DNA of 41,735 nt from a virus. Shown in pieces: positions 3,731 through 41,311 of this stretch; the stretch's first letter is position 1, and each line of letters starts with the position of its first letter. The notes under the pieces were generated by a model. That model saw only the letters and a list, made by a program, of their open reading frames with translations, did not search any database and was not told the origin of the DNA. The translations under genes and the position numbers were made by a program. The stretch lies in UHGV virus genome UHGV-1359735. One strand, 5' to 3'.

Positions 3731-3791
3731 TTACCAATCTGGTGTAAAAATCAATGACTGTTACCTTTTTGGTAAGTTTACCTTTATGGTA
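3731..3791. promoter_or_regulatory. OR-like operator cluster (3 sites) between cro-like and repressor genes
   Basis: TTACCaatctGGTGT (3731-3745, degenerate), TTACCttttGGTAA (3761-3774), TTACCtttatGGTAA (3777-3791). Confidence 0.7.
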
Positions 3792-3845
3792 ATATTCTAT
3801 TAAATTTAATCAGTTAGGTAACAATTTCAGGCTAAAAAAATAGAA

Positions 3846-4427
3846 ATGAAAAGCATCTACGACATACGACGCGACAACCTCAACGAGATAATCCGGAAGG
3901 ATTTCGATAACACGCAACTCCGGTTTGCCGAGAGATTCAAAAAATCAGCGAATCTCGTTAACAGGTGGAGCAAGGGGACAAAAAATATCGGCGCCAACGC
4001 GGCACGCGAGATCGAGTCGTTCGCCGGGAAAGGTCGTTTCTGGCTGGATATCGACCATCTGTCAGATACCCCGACGCTGCCGGAGATTATCGACCCGCAG
4101 GAATGGAGTGTGGAAAAGCAGGCAGCGTTTACCCTTGGTGTATGGATGGGACAGCATCCGGATCTGAACTCAGAGAAAAAGGTTTCGGAAGCGGCCGGTA
4201 TCGGCCAGGCGACCGTAAATCGCATCCTGAACTGCGAAGGTTCCACCAGCATTGGCGTACTGTCGGCTATCGCCAGCGCGTTCGGCCGCGATGCATATGA
4301 GCTGATCCTGCCGCCTGGTAATGCTGGTCTGATTGACTATGACCACCATGAATACGCCGGGCTGCCGCAGGAAGAGAAAAACAAGATCGCCGCCTTCATC
4401 AAGTTCATCGTCAGCCAGAACCAGTAA
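3846..4427 (+). CDS. Immunity repressor with two XRE-type HTH domains, no S24 peptidase domain
   Basis: 193 aa with two HTH-like segments (res ~20-60 and ~118-165). Divergent to the cro-like gene across the operator cluster. No SD before the ATG, so possibly leaderless like lambda cI. Confidence 0.7.
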   Translation: MKSIYDIRRDNLNEIIRKDFDNTQLRFAERFKKSANLVNRWSKGTKNIGANAAREIESFAGKGRFWLDIDHLSDTPTLPEIIDPQEWSVEKQAAFTLGVWMGQHPDLNSEKKVSEAAGIGQATVNRILNCEGSTSIGVLSAIASAFGRDAYELILPPGNAGLIDYDHHEYAGLPQEEKNKIAAFIKFIVSQNQ

Positions 4428-4482: not shown

Positions 4483-4634
4483 TTACCAAAATGGTAAACT
4501 TTTCCTCATCAAATCTATTGACACAACCATAAATTGATCAGATTATTACCTTAACGGTAACAACAGGGCGTTAAATTACCAGAAACCCACCATCGGGTGG
4601 ATTTCTCATACCCCTGATATTTACCAAATGGTAA
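4483..4634. promoter_or_regulatory. OL-like operator cluster plus PL-like promoter
   Basis: TTACCaaaatGGTAA 4483-4497; TTGACA(4518-4523)-17bp-GATTAT(4541-4546); TTACCttaacGGTAA 4546-4560 overlaps -10/+1; half site 4576-4580; TTACCaaatGGTAA 4621-4634; hairpin CCCACCatcGGGTGG at 4585-4600. Confidence 0.65.
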
Positions 4635-15738: not shown

Positions 15739-18069
15739 TTAAGCTCCTATGTAAGTTGCACCAGCAACAGGATATTCAATGGATATGCGTATATCAGTCG
15801 TGTCTCTTACAACAGAACCATCCATAGGCTGCCCACCTAAAAACAGATTCAATGTCGTTCCTGACGTGACACTGCAAGTAACAGGCAAGGTTCTATTCGG
15901 TATGTTTAATGTAGAGGTTACAGTTTTAGAGTTATCCTCATCCAATACGCCATGGATTTCGTACGTCTGGTTACCAAGAAGAACCTGGCAATGAACGCCA
16001 GACCCACTGCGCTGGCCAGGAGCAATTGCTATTGGGAGGCTTATAGATAGGTTTCCTGCAGGCTGTGTAGTAATGGATCCTATCGTCATCCATAGAGACA
16101 ATTTGCAATTGTCATTGCTGATCTCATAGTTCCCACCCCTTGTTGAATAGGTAATGACCCCAGCGGTGGCTGATCCTGTTAATGACGGATTAAAAGTGCC
16201 GGCTCTTGCCCCTATCATCGGCTTATTTGTTGAATCGTATGTTACTTCATCAACAGAACCAGTAGACTGATTTCTATTATCATAAGCATGTGATCTTGCA
16301 CATGTTCCTGAGAAATGAATTGCTCTTCCTGCAACTGAACAAGTCACTTTGTTATTTTCTGCATGAAGTCCAAAAAGGCCACGCATTTTAATGGCATAGT
16401 TTTGTTTTGAAGAAACCACATAACAGTTTTTTACAGAAATACTATGAGCAGTGTTTTGGCTGGTAATAAGGAATCCCGCATAGTCCCATCCAAGGGTGCC
16501 AGGGAGATCATATCCAATCAGTACACCAGCTTCCGTATTCGCACTGCCAGTACTACCATTACCGTTATTATAGAAATAACATCCTTCTATGGTTCCTCCA
16601 TGAGCTGGGTTTATTACAGTAGAGCCAGCATCGGCATTTGTACCTGAAGCAATACCTATACCCCAGGCTCCATTTTCAGAGTGTTCGATATTGGCACCAG
16701 TAACAGAGAAGCCAGCAGGGTTGCATAACATTAAATTGCCAACCCAGCCATGATGGTAAGTTCCACCAACAATAGAGATTCCAGTATGGTCATTAGTGTA
16801 ACCAATGCGACATGGAGTCTCTCCACCAAAGTACTCGCCTCCAATAATACTGCATCCCCACGCTCTTTTAGACCCTAACCACAGGCCATAACGCGCTCTC
16901 AATGGCTTCCCACTTCCATCAGTTGCAGTTGTATCCCCAGCCCAGAAGTCACAACTAATCACAAAACTGTTGTAACAACGAGGCACTTTTATAAGTGCGT
17001 CTGGGTAATATGTCGTCCCGACATATCTTACTTTTAAATCCTTTAAAATTATTCTCCTTGTTCTTTCCCCTGCTGCTTCCCTGGATAGAACTATCTGACC
17101 GCCATTCATTAATAATATCCCGTTAATAATATTAACGTTAATATCTAAATTATGGCTTTCATAAAGAGTATATTGCTTACCCCTAAGATCAATTGTGTAA
17201 GGTAACGAAGTTCCGAGAAGTGTGTCTGGCAACGACTCAAGATATGAAAACATTAATGACCAAAGCTGATCATCTGTAGGCTCTGCTATTCCCACACCAA
17301 ACATTTCAGGATATACAATTCTCCCCAAAGACAACATTTCCTGAACATTTAATCCATTTTCTGTTCCAACAAGCGATGCGCCGGCCGTGCTAGCAAGTTT
17401 GATGGCAAGGTCTGCTGTGTCGGTTTGACCAGCAATGGCTACTGGATTTCCAAGATCATTAAAGCCAAGGAGCATGTTCGAGCGAACATTTACCGGAGGA
17501 ACAATTCCCACATCAGACTCTGGAACTCGTAGTGACCTTCTGAATAATTTATCTGTGTAAGAATTAGAACTGTCCAGAATGCTGTCAGCATAATTTTTTG
17601 TAGCGGCATCCTGTGACTGTGATGGGTCACGCAGGTTACGAATGCGATTATTCAGTGCATCGTAGTAGTTCGCCAGCCATGATGGTTTCCTGAGTGATAG
17701 TCCAGACCACCAACCATAGGCCTGTTGCACCAGCATAGTCAGCTTATCGAAAGCATCTTCGTGGATCTCAGGAAAGAAGCCCCCCTGGTTCCTGATGCTG
17801 GCTTCCTGCGTAACCGGCGTGCTGCGCTCGATAGAGATTTTGTAGCCAGCTGGCAGCGCTGATGTCAGAACCACCTTCCCCCCGTTGTAACGGTTCACGC
17901 CGGTAACCGTGTAGTCGGTACCGAGTGTTAGCGTCACGATGTTTTCGGAGGTATCCAGGGTCTGCACCAGCAGGTGGCTTTTATCCAGGATGCGGAACGT
18001 GAAATCGTATTGGGTAGTGGCGCCGTTCCCGGTGTACTCGTTACGGCTTACCTGCGTTGAAACTGTCAT
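15739..18069 (-). CDS. Tailspike / tail fiber with T7 gp17-like N-terminal adaptor and beta-helix depolymerase body
   Basis: N-terminus MTVSTQVSRNEYTGNGATTQYDFTFRI is the conserved podovirus tail-fiber N-terminal domain; the remaining ~620 aa look like a beta-helix depolymerase; GC drops sharply at ~17600-17650 (module swap). Confidence 0.85.
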   Translation of the reverse strand: MTVSTQVSRNEYTGNGATTQYDFTFRILDKSHLLVQTLDTSENIVTLTLGTDYTVTGVNRYNGGKVVLTSALPAGYKISIERSTPVTQEASIRNQGGFFPEIHEDAFDKLTMLVQQAYGWWSGLSLRKPSWLANYYDALNNRIRNLRDPSQSQDAATKNYADSILDSSNSYTDKLFRRSLRVPESDVGIVPPVNVRSNMLLGFNDLGNPVAIAGQTDTADLAIKLASTAGASLVGTENGLNVQEMLSLGRIVYPEMFGVGIAEPTDDQLWSLMFSYLESLPDTLLGTSLPYTIDLRGKQYTLYESHNLDINVNIINGILLMNGGQIVLSREAAGERTRRIILKDLKVRYVGTTYYPDALIKVPRCYNSFVISCDFWAGDTTATDGSGKPLRARYGLWLGSKRAWGCSIIGGEYFGGETPCRIGYTNDHTGISIVGGTYHHGWVGNLMLCNPAGFSVTGANIEHSENGAWGIGIASGTNADAGSTVINPAHGGTIEGCYFYNNGNGSTGSANTEAGVLIGYDLPGTLGWDYAGFLITSQNTAHSISVKNCYVVSSKQNYAIKMRGLFGLHAENNKVTCSVAGRAIHFSGTCARSHAYDNRNQSTGSVDEVTYDSTNKPMIGARAGTFNPSLTGSATAGVITYSTRGGNYEISNDNCKLSLWMTIGSITTQPAGNLSISLPIAIAPGQRSGSGVHCQVLLGNQTYEIHGVLDEDNSKTVTSTLNIPNRTLPVTCSVTSGTTLNLFLGGQPMDGSVVRDTTDIRISIEYPVAGATYIGA

Positions 18070-18167
18070 AGTCTGCTCCAGTGGTCAGCGCTGGCGCGCG
18101 TGAATAGAAGCATTCTATTACCCATCAAACCATATATGAATAAAACAGATCGAAACGAGCAAAAACA

Positions 18168-18182
18168 TTACCATTAAGGTAA
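18168..18182. promoter_or_regulatory. Operator-like palindrome TTACCattaaGGTAA in the divergent tailspike / Ant-C-paralog region
   Basis: Perfect copy of the dispersed motif; a half-site lies at 18207-18211. Confidence 0.55.
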
Positions 18183-18256
18183 ATAAAAACCTTCTGGAAA
18201 ACCCTGTTACCTTTTGATATATGTATATATATACAGTATTTATCGGAGTAATCCTA

Positions 18257-18517
18257 ATGCCAGAGCGGTACCAGTATCCTGTCGACGAAGGTTTTGCGGA
18301 TCGTATTCACACCCCGGAAGGGGTCAGATCCCTGGTTGTAAAATCACAGCTGATGGAGTTGCTCAGGGAGATGGAGCGAGACGGCCACGATGTCAGCGGT
18401 GCGGCGGCGGAACTGGTGGCACTGGTTAACTATGTGACAAGCTCGCAGCTGTCGATGCGGGAGCTGCAAACACACCTGGATTTCTGCGCAATGCAGATTA
18501 GACAACATTTAAAGTAA
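18257..18517 (+). CDS. Small protein homologous to the C-terminal domain of the Ant antirepressor (86 aa)
   Basis: ATG 18257 after GGAG SD; about 50% identity to the C-terminal ~75 aa of the 20051..20740 product (IH.P.G.R.L..S.M.LLRE...DGHDVSGAAAE). Preceded by an operator and a LexA-like box. Confidence 0.5.
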   Translation: MPERYQYPVDEGFADRIHTPEGVRSLVVKSQLMELLREMERDGHDVSGAAAELVALVNYVTSSQLSMRELQTHLDFCAMQIRQHLK

Positions 18518-18582
18518 GTTATAAGCTACTCGTCTACATGCTATACTTATATGAAGACGAGTTGCTAATAAACGGTGGTAAA

Positions 18583-18738
18583 ATGAATGTGTTTTTAAAA
18601 AAAGAGTCTAATTCTTTAACTTCCACTGTAAAAATGCTAATAGTGGCAATTGTTACATATCAGATCGGGATAGGATGGGGGCTAATATGCATTGCTACTA
18701 TAAATGTGCTCCCATCCATAACAATAAAATTTAATTAA
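18583..18738 (+). CDS. Small membrane peptide (51 aa)
   Basis: ATG 18583 after GGTGG SD; one TM helix (MLIVAIVTYQIGIGWGLICIATI); 3' end overlaps the convergent 283-aa gene by 8 nt; AT-rich. Confidence 0.3.
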   Translation: MNVFLKKESNSLTSTVKMLIVAIVTYQIGIGWGLICIATINVLPSITIKFN

Positions 18739-19582
18739 GTTTTACACTCATTTGCCCAACATAATTAAACGGGTTTGATTTATCTATTCTTCTTAATGAC
18801 ATGGCAGAAGAAAAGTTCACAAAAGTACTAAATCCGTAGGTTGCTGAAGCTAAAATAGCACCTGTTTCTGGAAGACCTATTGATTTGGCGCCAAAATACG
18901 CTGCACCTGCATTTGTTACTATCTCAGGAATATTGAAGTTAAATTTTACTTCTGATAAGTTAAATTTTATACGGCTTTCACCATACAATCTAATAACATC
19001 TGCGCAAGCTTTATCTATCTCATTTATTGCCACCTTAAGTTCTAAGTCTCTGTTTTGCGAATTTAATACTCTTGTGTTAAGTTCATTAATTTTATTCATG
19101 AGGTTTTCTAGTTCCCCCTTTCTTTTAAGCCTGAACTCCAATATATCATGGATGTTTACACTTTCATCAGGCTCTGGAATTGCATTTATCAAAGTAAATA
19201 ACTCACCATTATCCGGAGCAACCTCATTGCTATTCTTAATCAATACTTTATCAGCCTCACTAGCAATAAAATTTATATCTTTTCGCGCAAGTGAATCAAT
19301 CATAAATTTCATATTTGCGTCATATAATAGCGTAGCAAAATCACCACTGCCATTGATACGTAACATTACCTCAGTAAATAACCCTTCCCTTTTAAGTTCT
19401 GGTATACCTGGGGTTTCGTCATTAGAGATATTAATTAAATTGTTGTTTGTTGTAATTATTTTATCCCAATAAAGAGCATTTATTAATAACTTCCTATAGT
19501 TTAAATTAGATTCTGCTATATGTATGCTATTATTATCTGCGTTAATAAACATATCAGGAAACATTAAAACATGATTTTCCAT
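18731..19582 (-). CDS. Hypothetical 283-aa protein, very AT-rich moron (candidate defense/exclusion gene)
   Basis: Long clean ORF with Asn/Ile/Lys-rich composition; GC about 30% versus the ~52% backbone; isolated between tailspike and ant. Confidence 0.5.
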   Translation of the reverse strand: MENHVLMFPDMFINADNNSIHIAESNLNYRKLLINALYWDKIITTNNNLINISNDETPGIPELKREGLFTEVMLRINGSGDFATLLYDANMKFMIDSLARKDINFIASEADKVLIKNSNEVAPDNGELFTLINAIPEPDESVNIHDILEFRLKRKGELENLMNKINELNTRVLNSQNRDLELKVAINEIDKACADVIRLYGESRIKFNLSEVKFNFNIPEIVTNAGAAYFGAKSIGLPETGAILASATYGFSTFVNFSSAMSLRRIDKSNPFNYVGQMSVKLN

Positions 19583-19768
19583 TTAATCACCCATAGTATG
19601 TGTAGTAATAAAAATAATTTATGTAACTTTATTGGTTAGAATCACATTGGTAAATATCAACACCAAAAAATATACTAGAACTATGTTTAGGATTGTTCTA
19701 TATGCACATAAAAAAAAGCGCAAAACAACTCATAAAGAGATTGATTTTACTTAATAAACAAAATAAGA

Positions 19769-19783
19769 TTACCAAAATGGTAA
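19769..19783. promoter_or_regulatory. Operator-like palindrome TTACCaaaatGGTAA plus promoter upstream of ant
   Basis: TTGATT(19741-19746)-17bp-TAAGAT(19764-19769) promoter directly abutting the perfect palindrome. Confidence 0.55.
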
Positions 19784-19874
19784 ATTTACAACCCATTTCC
19801 CTTGTGCCATAGTGATCAGGCATCGGCAAAATCCGGTGCCGGGATTGGCGTCCCGGATAACTAAACGGCGCACA

Positions 19875-19898
19875 ACACGCGCACTGCGTGTTTTTTTG
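19875..19898 (+). terminator. Intrinsic terminator in the ant leader
   Basis: ACACGC-gcact-GCGTGT stem-loop followed by TTTTTTT, about 100 nt downstream of the ant promoter/operator and ~150 nt before the ant start. Confidence 0.55.
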
Positions 19899-20050
19899 TG
19901 CACGCGCTCTGACGCACCTATCCAATGGTGGGCTGGGCGGGGGTCCGAAAGGACGCCGGTATCCGTTTAGGCCGGTACGCCAACTCCGTTCAGTTCACCA
20001 CCAGTAATTGGCGTTGCGGTGGTGATAACTCTACTAAGCGGGGTATCACA

Positions 20051-20740
20051 ATGAACACCAAACCTTCCATTTTCAATTTCGAATCAGACTCAGCTATTCG
20101 CGCCATTATGATCGATGGCAATCCTTGGTTTTTTGCATCCGATGTTTGCCGCGCGATTGGCATCGCAAACCATCGTGATGCAGTTCGCAAACTTGATGAT
20201 GACGAGAAGGGCGTCGGCTCAACCGACACCCTTGGTGGTGAGCAAGAATCAGTTATCATCTCCGAGTCTGGCCTCTACACTCTTATCCTCCGCTGCCGCG
20301 ATGCGGTGACGCCGGGCACCATCCCCTACCGCTTCCGCAAATGGGTAACCAGCGAGGTGCTGCCGCAGATCCGCAAGACTGGCCGCTACGTTCGGGAAGA
20401 ACTCTCCCAGGCTGATAAAGCCCGCATGCTGGCGCAGGAGATGACCAGCAGCATGTTGCCGGCGATCATGGATGCATTGCAGATCGAGCAGAAGCACTAC
20501 ACCTTCCCTCTTAACCGACGCTATCAGGATCACATCCATTCACCTGATGGCCTGCGTGAACTGGCGAAAAGCTCAATGGTGATGAAGCTGCTCCGCGAAC
20601 TCGATGCTGACGGGCATGATGTGTCCGGCGCCGCCGCAGAGGTCACAGCTATGCTCAGCTACATTGTTGGTATCGGCGCCGTACTGCGCGACATAGAGAC
20701 GCATGCTCAGTACGTGATGGCTAAAGCCAAGGGTTACTGA
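20051..20740 (+). CDS. ant: Antirepressor (BRO-N/Ant family)
   Basis: Starts MNTKPSIFNFESDSAIRAIMIDGNPWFFASDVCRAIG..., the BRO-N domain typical of Ant antirepressors; track ORF 19925..20740, probable start ATG 20051. Confidence 0.75.
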   Translation: MNTKPSIFNFESDSAIRAIMIDGNPWFFASDVCRAIGIANHRDAVRKLDDDEKGVGSTDTLGGEQESVIISESGLYTLILRCRDAVTPGTIPYRFRKWVTSEVLPQIRKTGRYVREELSQADKARMLAQEMTSSMLPAIMDALQIEQKHYTFPLNRRYQDHIHSPDGLRELAKSSMVMKLLRELDADGHDVSGAAAEVTAMLSYIVGIGAVLRDIETHAQYVMAKAKGY

Positions 20741-40906: not shown

Positions 40907-40921
40907 TTACCCTTTCGGTAA
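40907..40921. promoter_or_regulatory. Operator-like palindrome TTACCctttcGGTAA immediately upstream of terS
   Basis: On the minus strand a TATTAT -10-like hexamer directly precedes the palindrome; no good -35 (activator-dependent late promoter?). Confidence 0.5.
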
Positions 40922-40943
40922 TAATACCATGCCACCAGCGATG

Positions 40944-41273
40944 TTACATGATCGGAATATCATCATCACTCACCCATCCGGCCCGGTTTATCAGGTAGGT
41001 AACGACTCCCCGCACTTCAACATCGTCCAGGGCGTCCCCTTCCAGCGCCTCACCATCATCAGTGATCAGCGCCTGGCCACGGACAACAGCGAATTCAGTT
41101 TTCCCGGCATATGCGATAAGAACATGATCACCCTGCTTTGGCCGGCGGCAGACATCGACGATGGCATAACCGGCGGCAGTCTCCAGGGCGCGACAGTTGG
41201 CGTCATACTGACAAAGGCGGGAAACGGTTAGCGTTTGCTCAACGTAGTCTGCGGCAGGTGATGGAAACCCCAT
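40944..41273 (-). CDS. UmuD'-like (HumD-like) S24-fold protein, pre-truncated and lacking the Ser/Lys dyad
   Basis: Begins MGFPSPAADYVEQ, which is the N-terminus of processed E. coli UmuD' (GFPSPAADYVEQ after the Cys24-Gly25 cleavage site). C-terminal GDHVLIAYAGKTEFAVVRGQ aligns with UmuD GDIVIAAVDGEFTVKKLQ. The Ser60 loop is deleted and Lys97 is replaced by Arg. GAGG SD. A LexA box lies 19-38 nt upstream. Confidence 0.7.
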   Translation of the reverse strand: MGFPSPAADYVEQTLTVSRLCQYDANCRALETAAGYAIVDVCRRPKQGDHVLIAYAGKTEFAVVRGQALITDDGEALEGDALDDVEVRGVVTYLINRAGWVSDDDIPIM

Positions 41274-41291
41274 GATGACCTCACATAAAAA

Positions 41292-41311
41292 TACTGTATA
41301 TTTAAACAGTA
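41292..41311. promoter_or_regulatory. LexA (SOS) box TACTGTATATTTAAACAGTA
   Basis: Perfect CTGT-N8-ACAG with the flanking TA..TA of the enterobacterial consensus; overlaps the promoter region of the UmuD'-like gene. Confidence 0.8.

Follow-up and report, generated by a model that had tools for sequence, protein, structure and literature searches.

A predicted SPC32H-type antirepressor gene behind a conserved variant LexA-like box in an epsilon15-like Klebsiella phage or prophage

In Salmonella phage SPC32H, a lytic switch in which the antirepressor Ant, the repressor Rep and LexA take part was reportedly described by Kim and Ryu in 2013 (J Virol) and by Kim et al. in 2016 (PNAS), with the structures deposited as PDB 5D50 and 5D4Z. 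SPC32H Ant is reported to be structurally distinct from the Tum-type antirepressors, and the change in the box of phage SPC32N is reported to make Ant synthesis constitutive and the phage lytic. The ant intergenic regions of SPC32H and SPC32N were found to be identical but for one base, the C in the right (CAG) arm of the box (TATACAGTG and TATAAAGTG, respectively). In PMC7380047, the work of Kim and Ryu is cited for LexA-cleavage-dependent synthesis of Ant and for the inhibition of the repressor by Ant, and PMC9638917 describes Ant as a tetramer to which two Rep dimers bind and which disrupts the Rep tetramer. The logic of the Tum-type systems, as outlined in PMC7380047, is that LexA represses a small antirepressor gene whose product, once the SOS response has lifted this repression, binds the prophage repressor and inactivates it. 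Tum of phage 186, the Gifsy/Fels-2 antirepressors and AntC of N15 follow the same logic as the locus described here, and the likeness is functional only.

The window analysed here is the whole viral sequence UHGV-1359735, with a length of 41,735 nucleotides. The small ant gene lies on the plus strand at 18257..18517 (ATG at 18257, TAA at 18515-18517) and encodes a predicted SPC32H-type antirepressor of 86 amino acids. The open reading frame was present where the original prediction had placed it, and a ribosome-binding site, GGAG (18245-18248, plus strand), was found 8 nt 5' of the ATG and was kept in 11 of 12 aligned promoters. By tblastn, 97% of the product aligned at 63.9% identity with the protein that the records of Salmonella phages SPC32H and SPC32N call 'ant: anti-repressor protein'. 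The SPC32H gene, SPC32H_020, also encodes 86 amino acids, is named 'ant, anti-repressor protein' in GenBank and is divergent from the tailspike gene. The sole PDB match of small Ant was chain E of 5D50, 'Anti-repressor protein' (E 1.5e-32, residues 2-84 to 2-84), no Pfam family was matched, and neither search detected a relation to Tum or AntC. Small Ant was assigned to phrog_450 (4e-44), which PHROGs files under unknown function. Relatives were encoded on 466 IMG/VR stretches, and the length of 86 amino acids was kept across genera. The locus was 95-99% identical to four Klebsiella phage records, in which the gene is called 'hypothetical' or the record is unannotated.

As judged from sequence comparison, the 86-aa gene is the orthologue of SPC32H ant in an epsilon15-like (Uetakevirus-type) Klebsiella phage or prophage. 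It had been proposed earlier to encode a small SOS-triggered antirepressor of a non-cleavable repressor, and this proposal was supported, the orthologue having been reported as such (GenBank, 5D50, PMC7380047, PMC9638917). The gene is therefore a hitherto unannotated member of a switch type that has already been characterised, and the mechanism put forward in the original prediction was essentially a rediscovery. The result is mainly an annotation correction, the gene being a 'hypothetical protein' in every Klebsiella record seen. The switch itself has been textbook knowledge for epsilon15-like phages since 2013-2016, and the unusual feature here is only the conserved, weakened-looking LexA site.

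The presumed target of small Ant is Rep, a repressor of 193 amino acids encoded on the plus strand at 3846..4427. Rep matched chain A of 5D50, 'Repressor', over its full length (E 1e-74, residues 1-192), and both chains of the Ant-Rep complex solved as 5D50 thus matched window proteins. For Rep, Pfam gave HTH_3 only, and no S24 peptidase domain was found. SPC32H resembles the window in its 86-aa Ant (64% identical), in a full-length Rep orthologue without a peptidase domain, in the divergence of ant from the tailspike gene, in a TTACC-N5-GGTAA palindrome about 90 nt 5' of the ATG and in a 20-nt LexA-type palindrome that ends 18-19 nt before the ATG.

The Rep operator palindrome upstream of small ant, TTACCATTAAGGTAA (18168-18182, no strand assigned), lies between the divergent tailspike (15739..18069, minus strand) and ant genes. 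It had been noticed before as a repressor palindrome and was recovered here as one of 11 exact copies. In the whole window, TTACC-N5-GGTAA occurred in these 11 exact copies and in 2 further copies with one mismatch, compared to 0.7 expected, and 0 of 100 shuffles reached this number. Two of the palindromes are directly 5' of rep (3761-3792). The half-sites at 18168-18182 were at the same position and invariant in all of the relatives aligned, and the orthologous site of epsilon15 is annotated as 'protein_bind repressor'. Moreover, the order of tailspike gene (minus strand), Rep operator, box and ant was the same in SPC32H, epsilon15, phiV10, Tyrion, BUCT554 and TL-2011b. The operator family marks a Rep regulon that is not confined to one immunity region but extends over the entire genome. 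The other operators were found at 1439-1515, 3761-3792, 4483-4560, 19769, 20804, 37756 and 40907-41002, often in pairs 17-80 nt apart. A promoter-like element pointing to the tailspike gene, TTCATA-17-TAGAAT, was seen at 18112-18140 on the minus strand, within a stretch (TTCTATTACC...ATATGAAT) that was almost invariant in all 13 aligned phages. The Rep operator, being flanked by this element and the ant promoter, could act on both.

The LexA-like box before the small ant start codon, ATATGTATATATATACAGTA, was present at 18219-18238 (no strand assigned) and ends 18 nt 5' of the ATG. In this box ATG replaces the left CTG, so that it reads ATATGT-N8-ACAGT compared to the canonical TACTGT-N8-ACAGT. 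The two mismatches listed in the original prediction, T1>A and C3>A, were both found, but the count against TACTGTATATATATACAGTA was three, A2>T having been missed. The right arm and the spacing were intact, at a position orthologous to that of the canonical box, and the left arm was ATGT. Upstream of the box, a CTGGA/TGGAAA element (18194-18200, plus strand) contains TGGAAA (18195..18200), a putative -35-like hexamer. CTGGA was invariant in 13 of 13 and in 12 of 12 aligned promoters, with scrambled flanks. TGGAAA is located 17 nt 5' of the -10-like hexamer and the Rep operator 12 nt 5' of TGGAAA. The -10-like hexamer is part of a putative extended -10-like element, TGaTATATG (18215..18223, plus strand), which overlaps the left arm of the box. 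TG and TATATG were invariant in 12 divergent variant-box promoters, and the canonical-box relatives had TGnTACTGT at the equivalent place. In a scan for consensus promoters and terminators, neither the ant promoter nor any terminator was detected; we infer the hexamers of this promoter from their conservation. An in-frame ATG at 18221, inside the LexA-like box, would give a product of 98 amino acids. It was rejected as the small ant start, being without a ribosome-binding site and positioned within or upstream of the -10-like element; all homologues begin at the 86-aa position. In addition, the distance from box to ATG ranged from 17 to 21 nt among relatives, which means that the 98-aa frame is not conserved.

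The strength of the box was estimated with a LexA heterology-index (HI) matrix obtained by regression on the E. coli site table published with PSOSP (PMC12527982 supplement). The regression left a residual of 3e-5, and the matrix gave back the tabulated values for recA (4.31) and umuDC (2.77). With a symmetric matrix and N = 38, the penalty for any departure from the consensus at an invariant CTG/CAG position is ln(38.5/0.5) = 4.34. The HI was 8.12 for the window box, compared to 3.81 for SPC32H, 8.15 for SPC32N and 1.49 for epsilon15. The window box was one of two sites with HI < 13 in the window, and a site with HI <= 8.2 occurred in 0 of 200 shuffled windows. Near small ant the scan found no other site below 13, and a hidden canonical box in another register was not found. 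In the PSOSP table, the Mean Shift low-HI class of E. coli sites reaches about 13.6 (PMC12527982), and an HI of 8.1 falls among accepted E. coli operators. All reference E. coli sites have the C of the left CTG that is absent from the window box, and the penalty of 4.34 is a pseudocount bound that may understate the real cost. The equal HI of the SPC32N box likewise indicates that the loss of a CTG/CAG base may weigh more than the index suggests. A precedent for the ATG half-site was found in the E. coli recN promoter, where TAATGGTTTTTCATACAGGA is the third of three boxes (HI 11.49, calculated by hand with the same matrix); three SOS boxes are also listed for the recN promoter of Salmonella.

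The window thus differs from SPC32H in its left arm (ATATGT versus TACTGT) and in the resulting HI (8.1 versus 3.8). It is like SPC32N in that one arm of the box lacks a CTG/CAG base, with nearly the same HI in both. In SPC32N, however, the C of the right CAG is changed, whereas in the window the C of the left CTG and two flanking bases are changed. Furthermore, the SPC32N change is the mutation of a single isolate, whereas the ATG-type box has become fixed in several genera, in many prophages that are stably integrated.

In an alignment of the intergenic region from 13 phages, the canonical TACTGT-N8-ACAGT was found in every non-Klebsiella member (SPC32H, epsilon15, phiV10, Tyrion, TL-2011b, BUCT554 and phiv142-3), and ATATGT-N8-ACAGT was found in all five of the Klebsiella sequences. 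Among reference genomes, those of K. pneumoniae ATCC 13883, Superficieibacter electus and Pseudescherichia vulneris also had the ATG-type box, with Ant proteins 97%, 63% and 54% identical to that of the window, respectively. Among 78 IMG/VR loci, which were the closest relatives kept by the scan, 68 contained ATATGT-N8-ACAGT, 5 contained the canonical box and 5 contained a disrupted box. When 12 variant-box promoters were aligned (Ant identity 54% to 100%), the operator half-sites, CTGGA, TG plus TATATGTATAT-NN-ATACAGT, the core of the ribosome-binding site and the ATG were invariant, and the remaining columns were scrambled. Box positions 1-10 and 13-19 were invariant in the variant-box relatives; the only variable positions, 11, 12 and 20, are of low information content in the LexA matrix. 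The comparative evidence is consistent with selection still acting on a LexA-type palindrome and its exact spacing, and a -10 role of TATATG could explain part of the conservation. The variant-box prophages are numerous in isolate genomes, indicating that they form stable lysogens. In three Klebsiella-type IMG/VR loci (L050, L071 and L080), the 5' sequence was swapped exactly inside the box, ...GGGAAGACC|CATATATATACAGTA, with loss of the left arm, the promoter and the operator; the breakpoint in the TA-rich spacer may stem from a rearrangement or an insertion. In a further IMG/VR locus (L069), the spacer 5' of the ant ATG was 2 nt shorter (ATGTATTTTTACAG) and the half-site spacing was broken.

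The window also encodes a large Ant (20051..20740, plus strand), in which a Bro-N domain (1.4e-19) is joined to a C-terminal domain (about 20486-20737) paralogous to small Ant. This C-terminus matched phrog_450 at 1e-38 and 5D50 chain E at E 8e-16 (residues 147-223). The identity of about 50% previously given for the small protein and the large Ant C-terminus was too high, BLASTP with the C-terminal 80 residues giving 31/80 (39%) identical and 69% positive residues (E 1e-23). In relatives, the shared C-terminal domain was joined to Bro-N or to a different N-terminal domain. This N-terminal modularity, together with 5D50, in which the 86-aa protein suffices as the partner of Rep, supports the C-terminal domain as the repressor-binding part of Ant, and the data fit that earlier supposition. 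Small Ant corresponds to the C-terminal domain of the Bro-N 'anti-repressors' and, by homology, points to the probable Rep-binding part of these larger proteins. In the related phage vB_EcoP_ZX5, overexpression of the Bro-N anti-repressor decreased lysogen counts about 1000-fold (PMC9782041). The phiV10 p23 protein, an 'anti-immunity' Bro-N protein, was found to be truncated inside the Ant-like C-terminal domain compared to Tyrion, phiv142-3 and the window (locus L024 in our set); it may be a pseudogene or a sequencing frameshift.

The block DGHDVSGAAAE was common to small and large Ant, as had been claimed, and is coded at 18383-18415 and 20609-20641. It was the form found in the large Ants that retain the block (window, ST11-OXA245phi3.2, Tyrion and phiv142-3), and the small Ants contained either DGHDVSGAAAE (Klebsiella, Scandinavium) or DGFNVDGPLAE (Salmonella, E. 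coli, Citrobacter), the latter being the form of SPC32H. The block may be a Rep-specificity surface. Recent gene conversion between small and large ant was rejected as its source, many synonymous sites within the block being different. A link between the DGHDVSGAAAE allele and the ATG-type box was also rejected: the allele is combined with a canonical box in a Scandinavium prophage, and the ATG-type box of a Superficieibacter prophage precedes an Ant with DGFNVDGPMAE.

The statement in the original prediction that full-length ant is controlled by the repressor palindrome only was incorrect. Between the Rep operator of large ant (19769-19783, TTACC-N5-GGTAA family) and the ant start, three RNA elements were matched on the plus strand: c4-a1b1 targets at 19807-19859 (Rfam 44.9 bits, just under the gathering score of 46.7), an isrK-like RNA with a terminator at 19820-19896 (80.2 bits, gathering score 50) and a C4 antisense RNA at 19921-20005 (66.4 bits, gathering score 45). 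The control region 19769..20005 was about 99% identical in ST11-OXA245phi3.2. The HI scan found no LexA-like site below 13 5' of large ant. From the Rfam matches, large ant is predicted to be under P1 immI-like antisense RNA control, here in an epsilon15-like phage. The C4, a1/b1 and isrK matches 5' of large ant make it resemble P1/P7 immI (c4 antisense RNA - icd - ant) and Gifsy-1 isrK, but the likeness concerns the large paralogue only and not the 86-aa gene, and the antirepressor domain of the window is SPC32H-type. SPC32H differs from the window in having no large Bro-N paralogue with C4/isrK RNA control.

A canonical LexA box, TACTGTATATTTAAACAGTA (41292-41311, no strand assigned; HI 2.36), is located 18 nt 5' of a umuD'-like gene (about 40944..41273, minus strand; 109 aa; phrog_3469, 3e-47) and served as an internal comparison. 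The protein begins with MGFPSPAADY, a start that presumably corresponds to the residue after the UmuD cleavage site, and in this it resembles a pre-processed UmuD'. We take the 109-aa product to be like P1 HumD. No recognisable Peptidase_S24 match was found for it in Pfam. This looks like a second SOS-controlled gene of the phage.

Taken as a whole, the locus is, in our judgement, quite probably an SPC32H-type Ant switch with a variant LexA operator. In the lysogen, Rep (3846..4427) would be bound to the TTACC-N5-GGTAA operators and host LexA to the box overlapping the -10 region of the ant promoter; the orthology of Ant and Rep, the synteny and the conservation of operators and box were computed here. 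Upon DNA damage, self-cleavage of LexA would allow transcription of ant, and Ant (a tetramer in SPC32H) would bind Rep dimers and remove the Rep tetramer from the operators. The lytic genes would then be turned on without Rep cleavage. For Ant-Rep binding and for the LexA dependence of Ant synthesis, this scheme draws on the literature on the orthologue. In the present lineage the LexA operator would be the conserved, lower-affinity-looking ATGT-N8-ACAG, and control is probably kept in a weaker or differently tuned form; LexA binding to the ATG-type box is, together with the promoter hexamers, what we infer. The second antirepressor, a Bro-N fusion with the same Rep-binding-type domain, would be under separate control by a Rep operator and the C4/isrK RNA. 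That LexA still controls the ant promoter, probably at lower affinity, seems likely to us, if held a little less firmly than the scheme as a whole; the HI of the box (8.1) equals that of the SPC32N mutant box (8.15), so that we put such control no higher than likely.

It is also conceivable, and in our view rather unlikely, that Ant acts as a Rep antirepressor and that the ATG-type box has lost its effectiveness as a LexA operator, induction being SOS-independent or weakly SOS-linked. The conserved TGnTATATGTATAT..ATACAGT would then be kept as a promoter (extended -10 and start region) or as the site of another factor, and how much Ant is made would depend on Rep at the upstream operator or on the strength of the promoter. 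In keeping with this, the C of CTG was replaced at every variant-box locus, the HI is that of the SPC32N mutant box, the change of C to TA also turns the -10-like TACTGT into TATATG, and the Rep operator is located 12 nt 5' of the -35-like element; the canonical box (HI 2.36) at the umuD'-like gene of the same genome indicates that a strong box was available to the phage. However, the right arm ATACAGT and the exact 8-nt spacing were invariant, with no promoter role that requires either, variation was confined to low-information positions of the LexA motif, and working E. coli operators include sites with an HI as high as 8.1. Moreover, the upstream Rep operator of SPC32N is intact, yet Ant is reportedly constitutive in that phage, so that Rep alone seems not to silence the promoter. 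A related suggestion, which we find doubtful and less likely again, is that ATGT-N8-ACAG is a deliberately remodelled and not a decayed operator that needs a compensating input. The C-to-TA change may have recast the -10 element and the left LexA arm together, and the remodelled box may then have been fixed across Klebsiella, Superficieibacter, Pseudescherichia and other prophages. If LexA binds the variant box as poorly as it apparently binds that of SPC32N, a compensating input that has so far escaped recognition would be required for stable lysogeny; LexA cooperation with Rep at the operator 36 nt 5', or a phage factor that strengthens LexA binding, would be candidates. Such strengthening is described for gp7 of phage GIL01 (PMC4551915). 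If true, this would make, with the C4 RNA-controlled large Ant, a two-input antirepressor switch on one shared Rep-binding domain.

The remaining two explanations concern the protein and the locus as a whole. The small protein could modulate the large Bro-N Ant and not Rep, for example through mixed oligomers formed via the shared domain. The homologous domain, including DGHDVSGAAAE, is present in both proteins, and the description of SPC32H Ant as a tetramer makes mixed assemblies conceivable, but SPC32H has a small Ant and no large paralogue (one match in the record), its Ant binds Rep directly in 5D50 and the window Rep is a full-length orthologue; we consider such modulation highly improbable. 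As for the open reading frame and the AT-rich palindrome being chance features without function, the AT-richness of the box was the one observation that agreed with it. Against it, the 86-aa length was kept across genera, the phrog_450 match was at 4e-44, relatives were encoded on 466 IMG/VR stretches and 0 of 200 shuffles gave a comparable site. We regard chance as already refuted by these conservation data.

An SPC32H-type Ant switch with a variant LexA operator, the reading preferred here, would have consequences for how such prophages are classified. In the part of the PSOSP table considered, every potential SOS box is CTG-N10-CAG (PMC12527982). Searches for CTG-N10-CAG would miss the variant box and could misclassify a common K. 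pneumoniae prophage group as SOS-independent. The conserved ATG-type box would also offer a natural test of LexA half-site tolerance, comparable with the SPC32H/SPC32N pair.

Small and large ant are separated in the window by a stretch of about 1.25 kb (18520-19760) with a low GC content (25-35%). It contains a DUF6236 gene of 283 amino acids (18731..19582, minus strand; phrog_23128, 6e-116), which had no PADLOC hit, and a possible 51-aa membrane open reading frame (18583..18738); PADLOC gave no hits for the open reading frames neighbouring small ant. In ST11-OXA245phi3.2 the 18520-19760 stretch was absent and large ant started 315 nt after small ant, and the stretch looks like an inserted cargo module.
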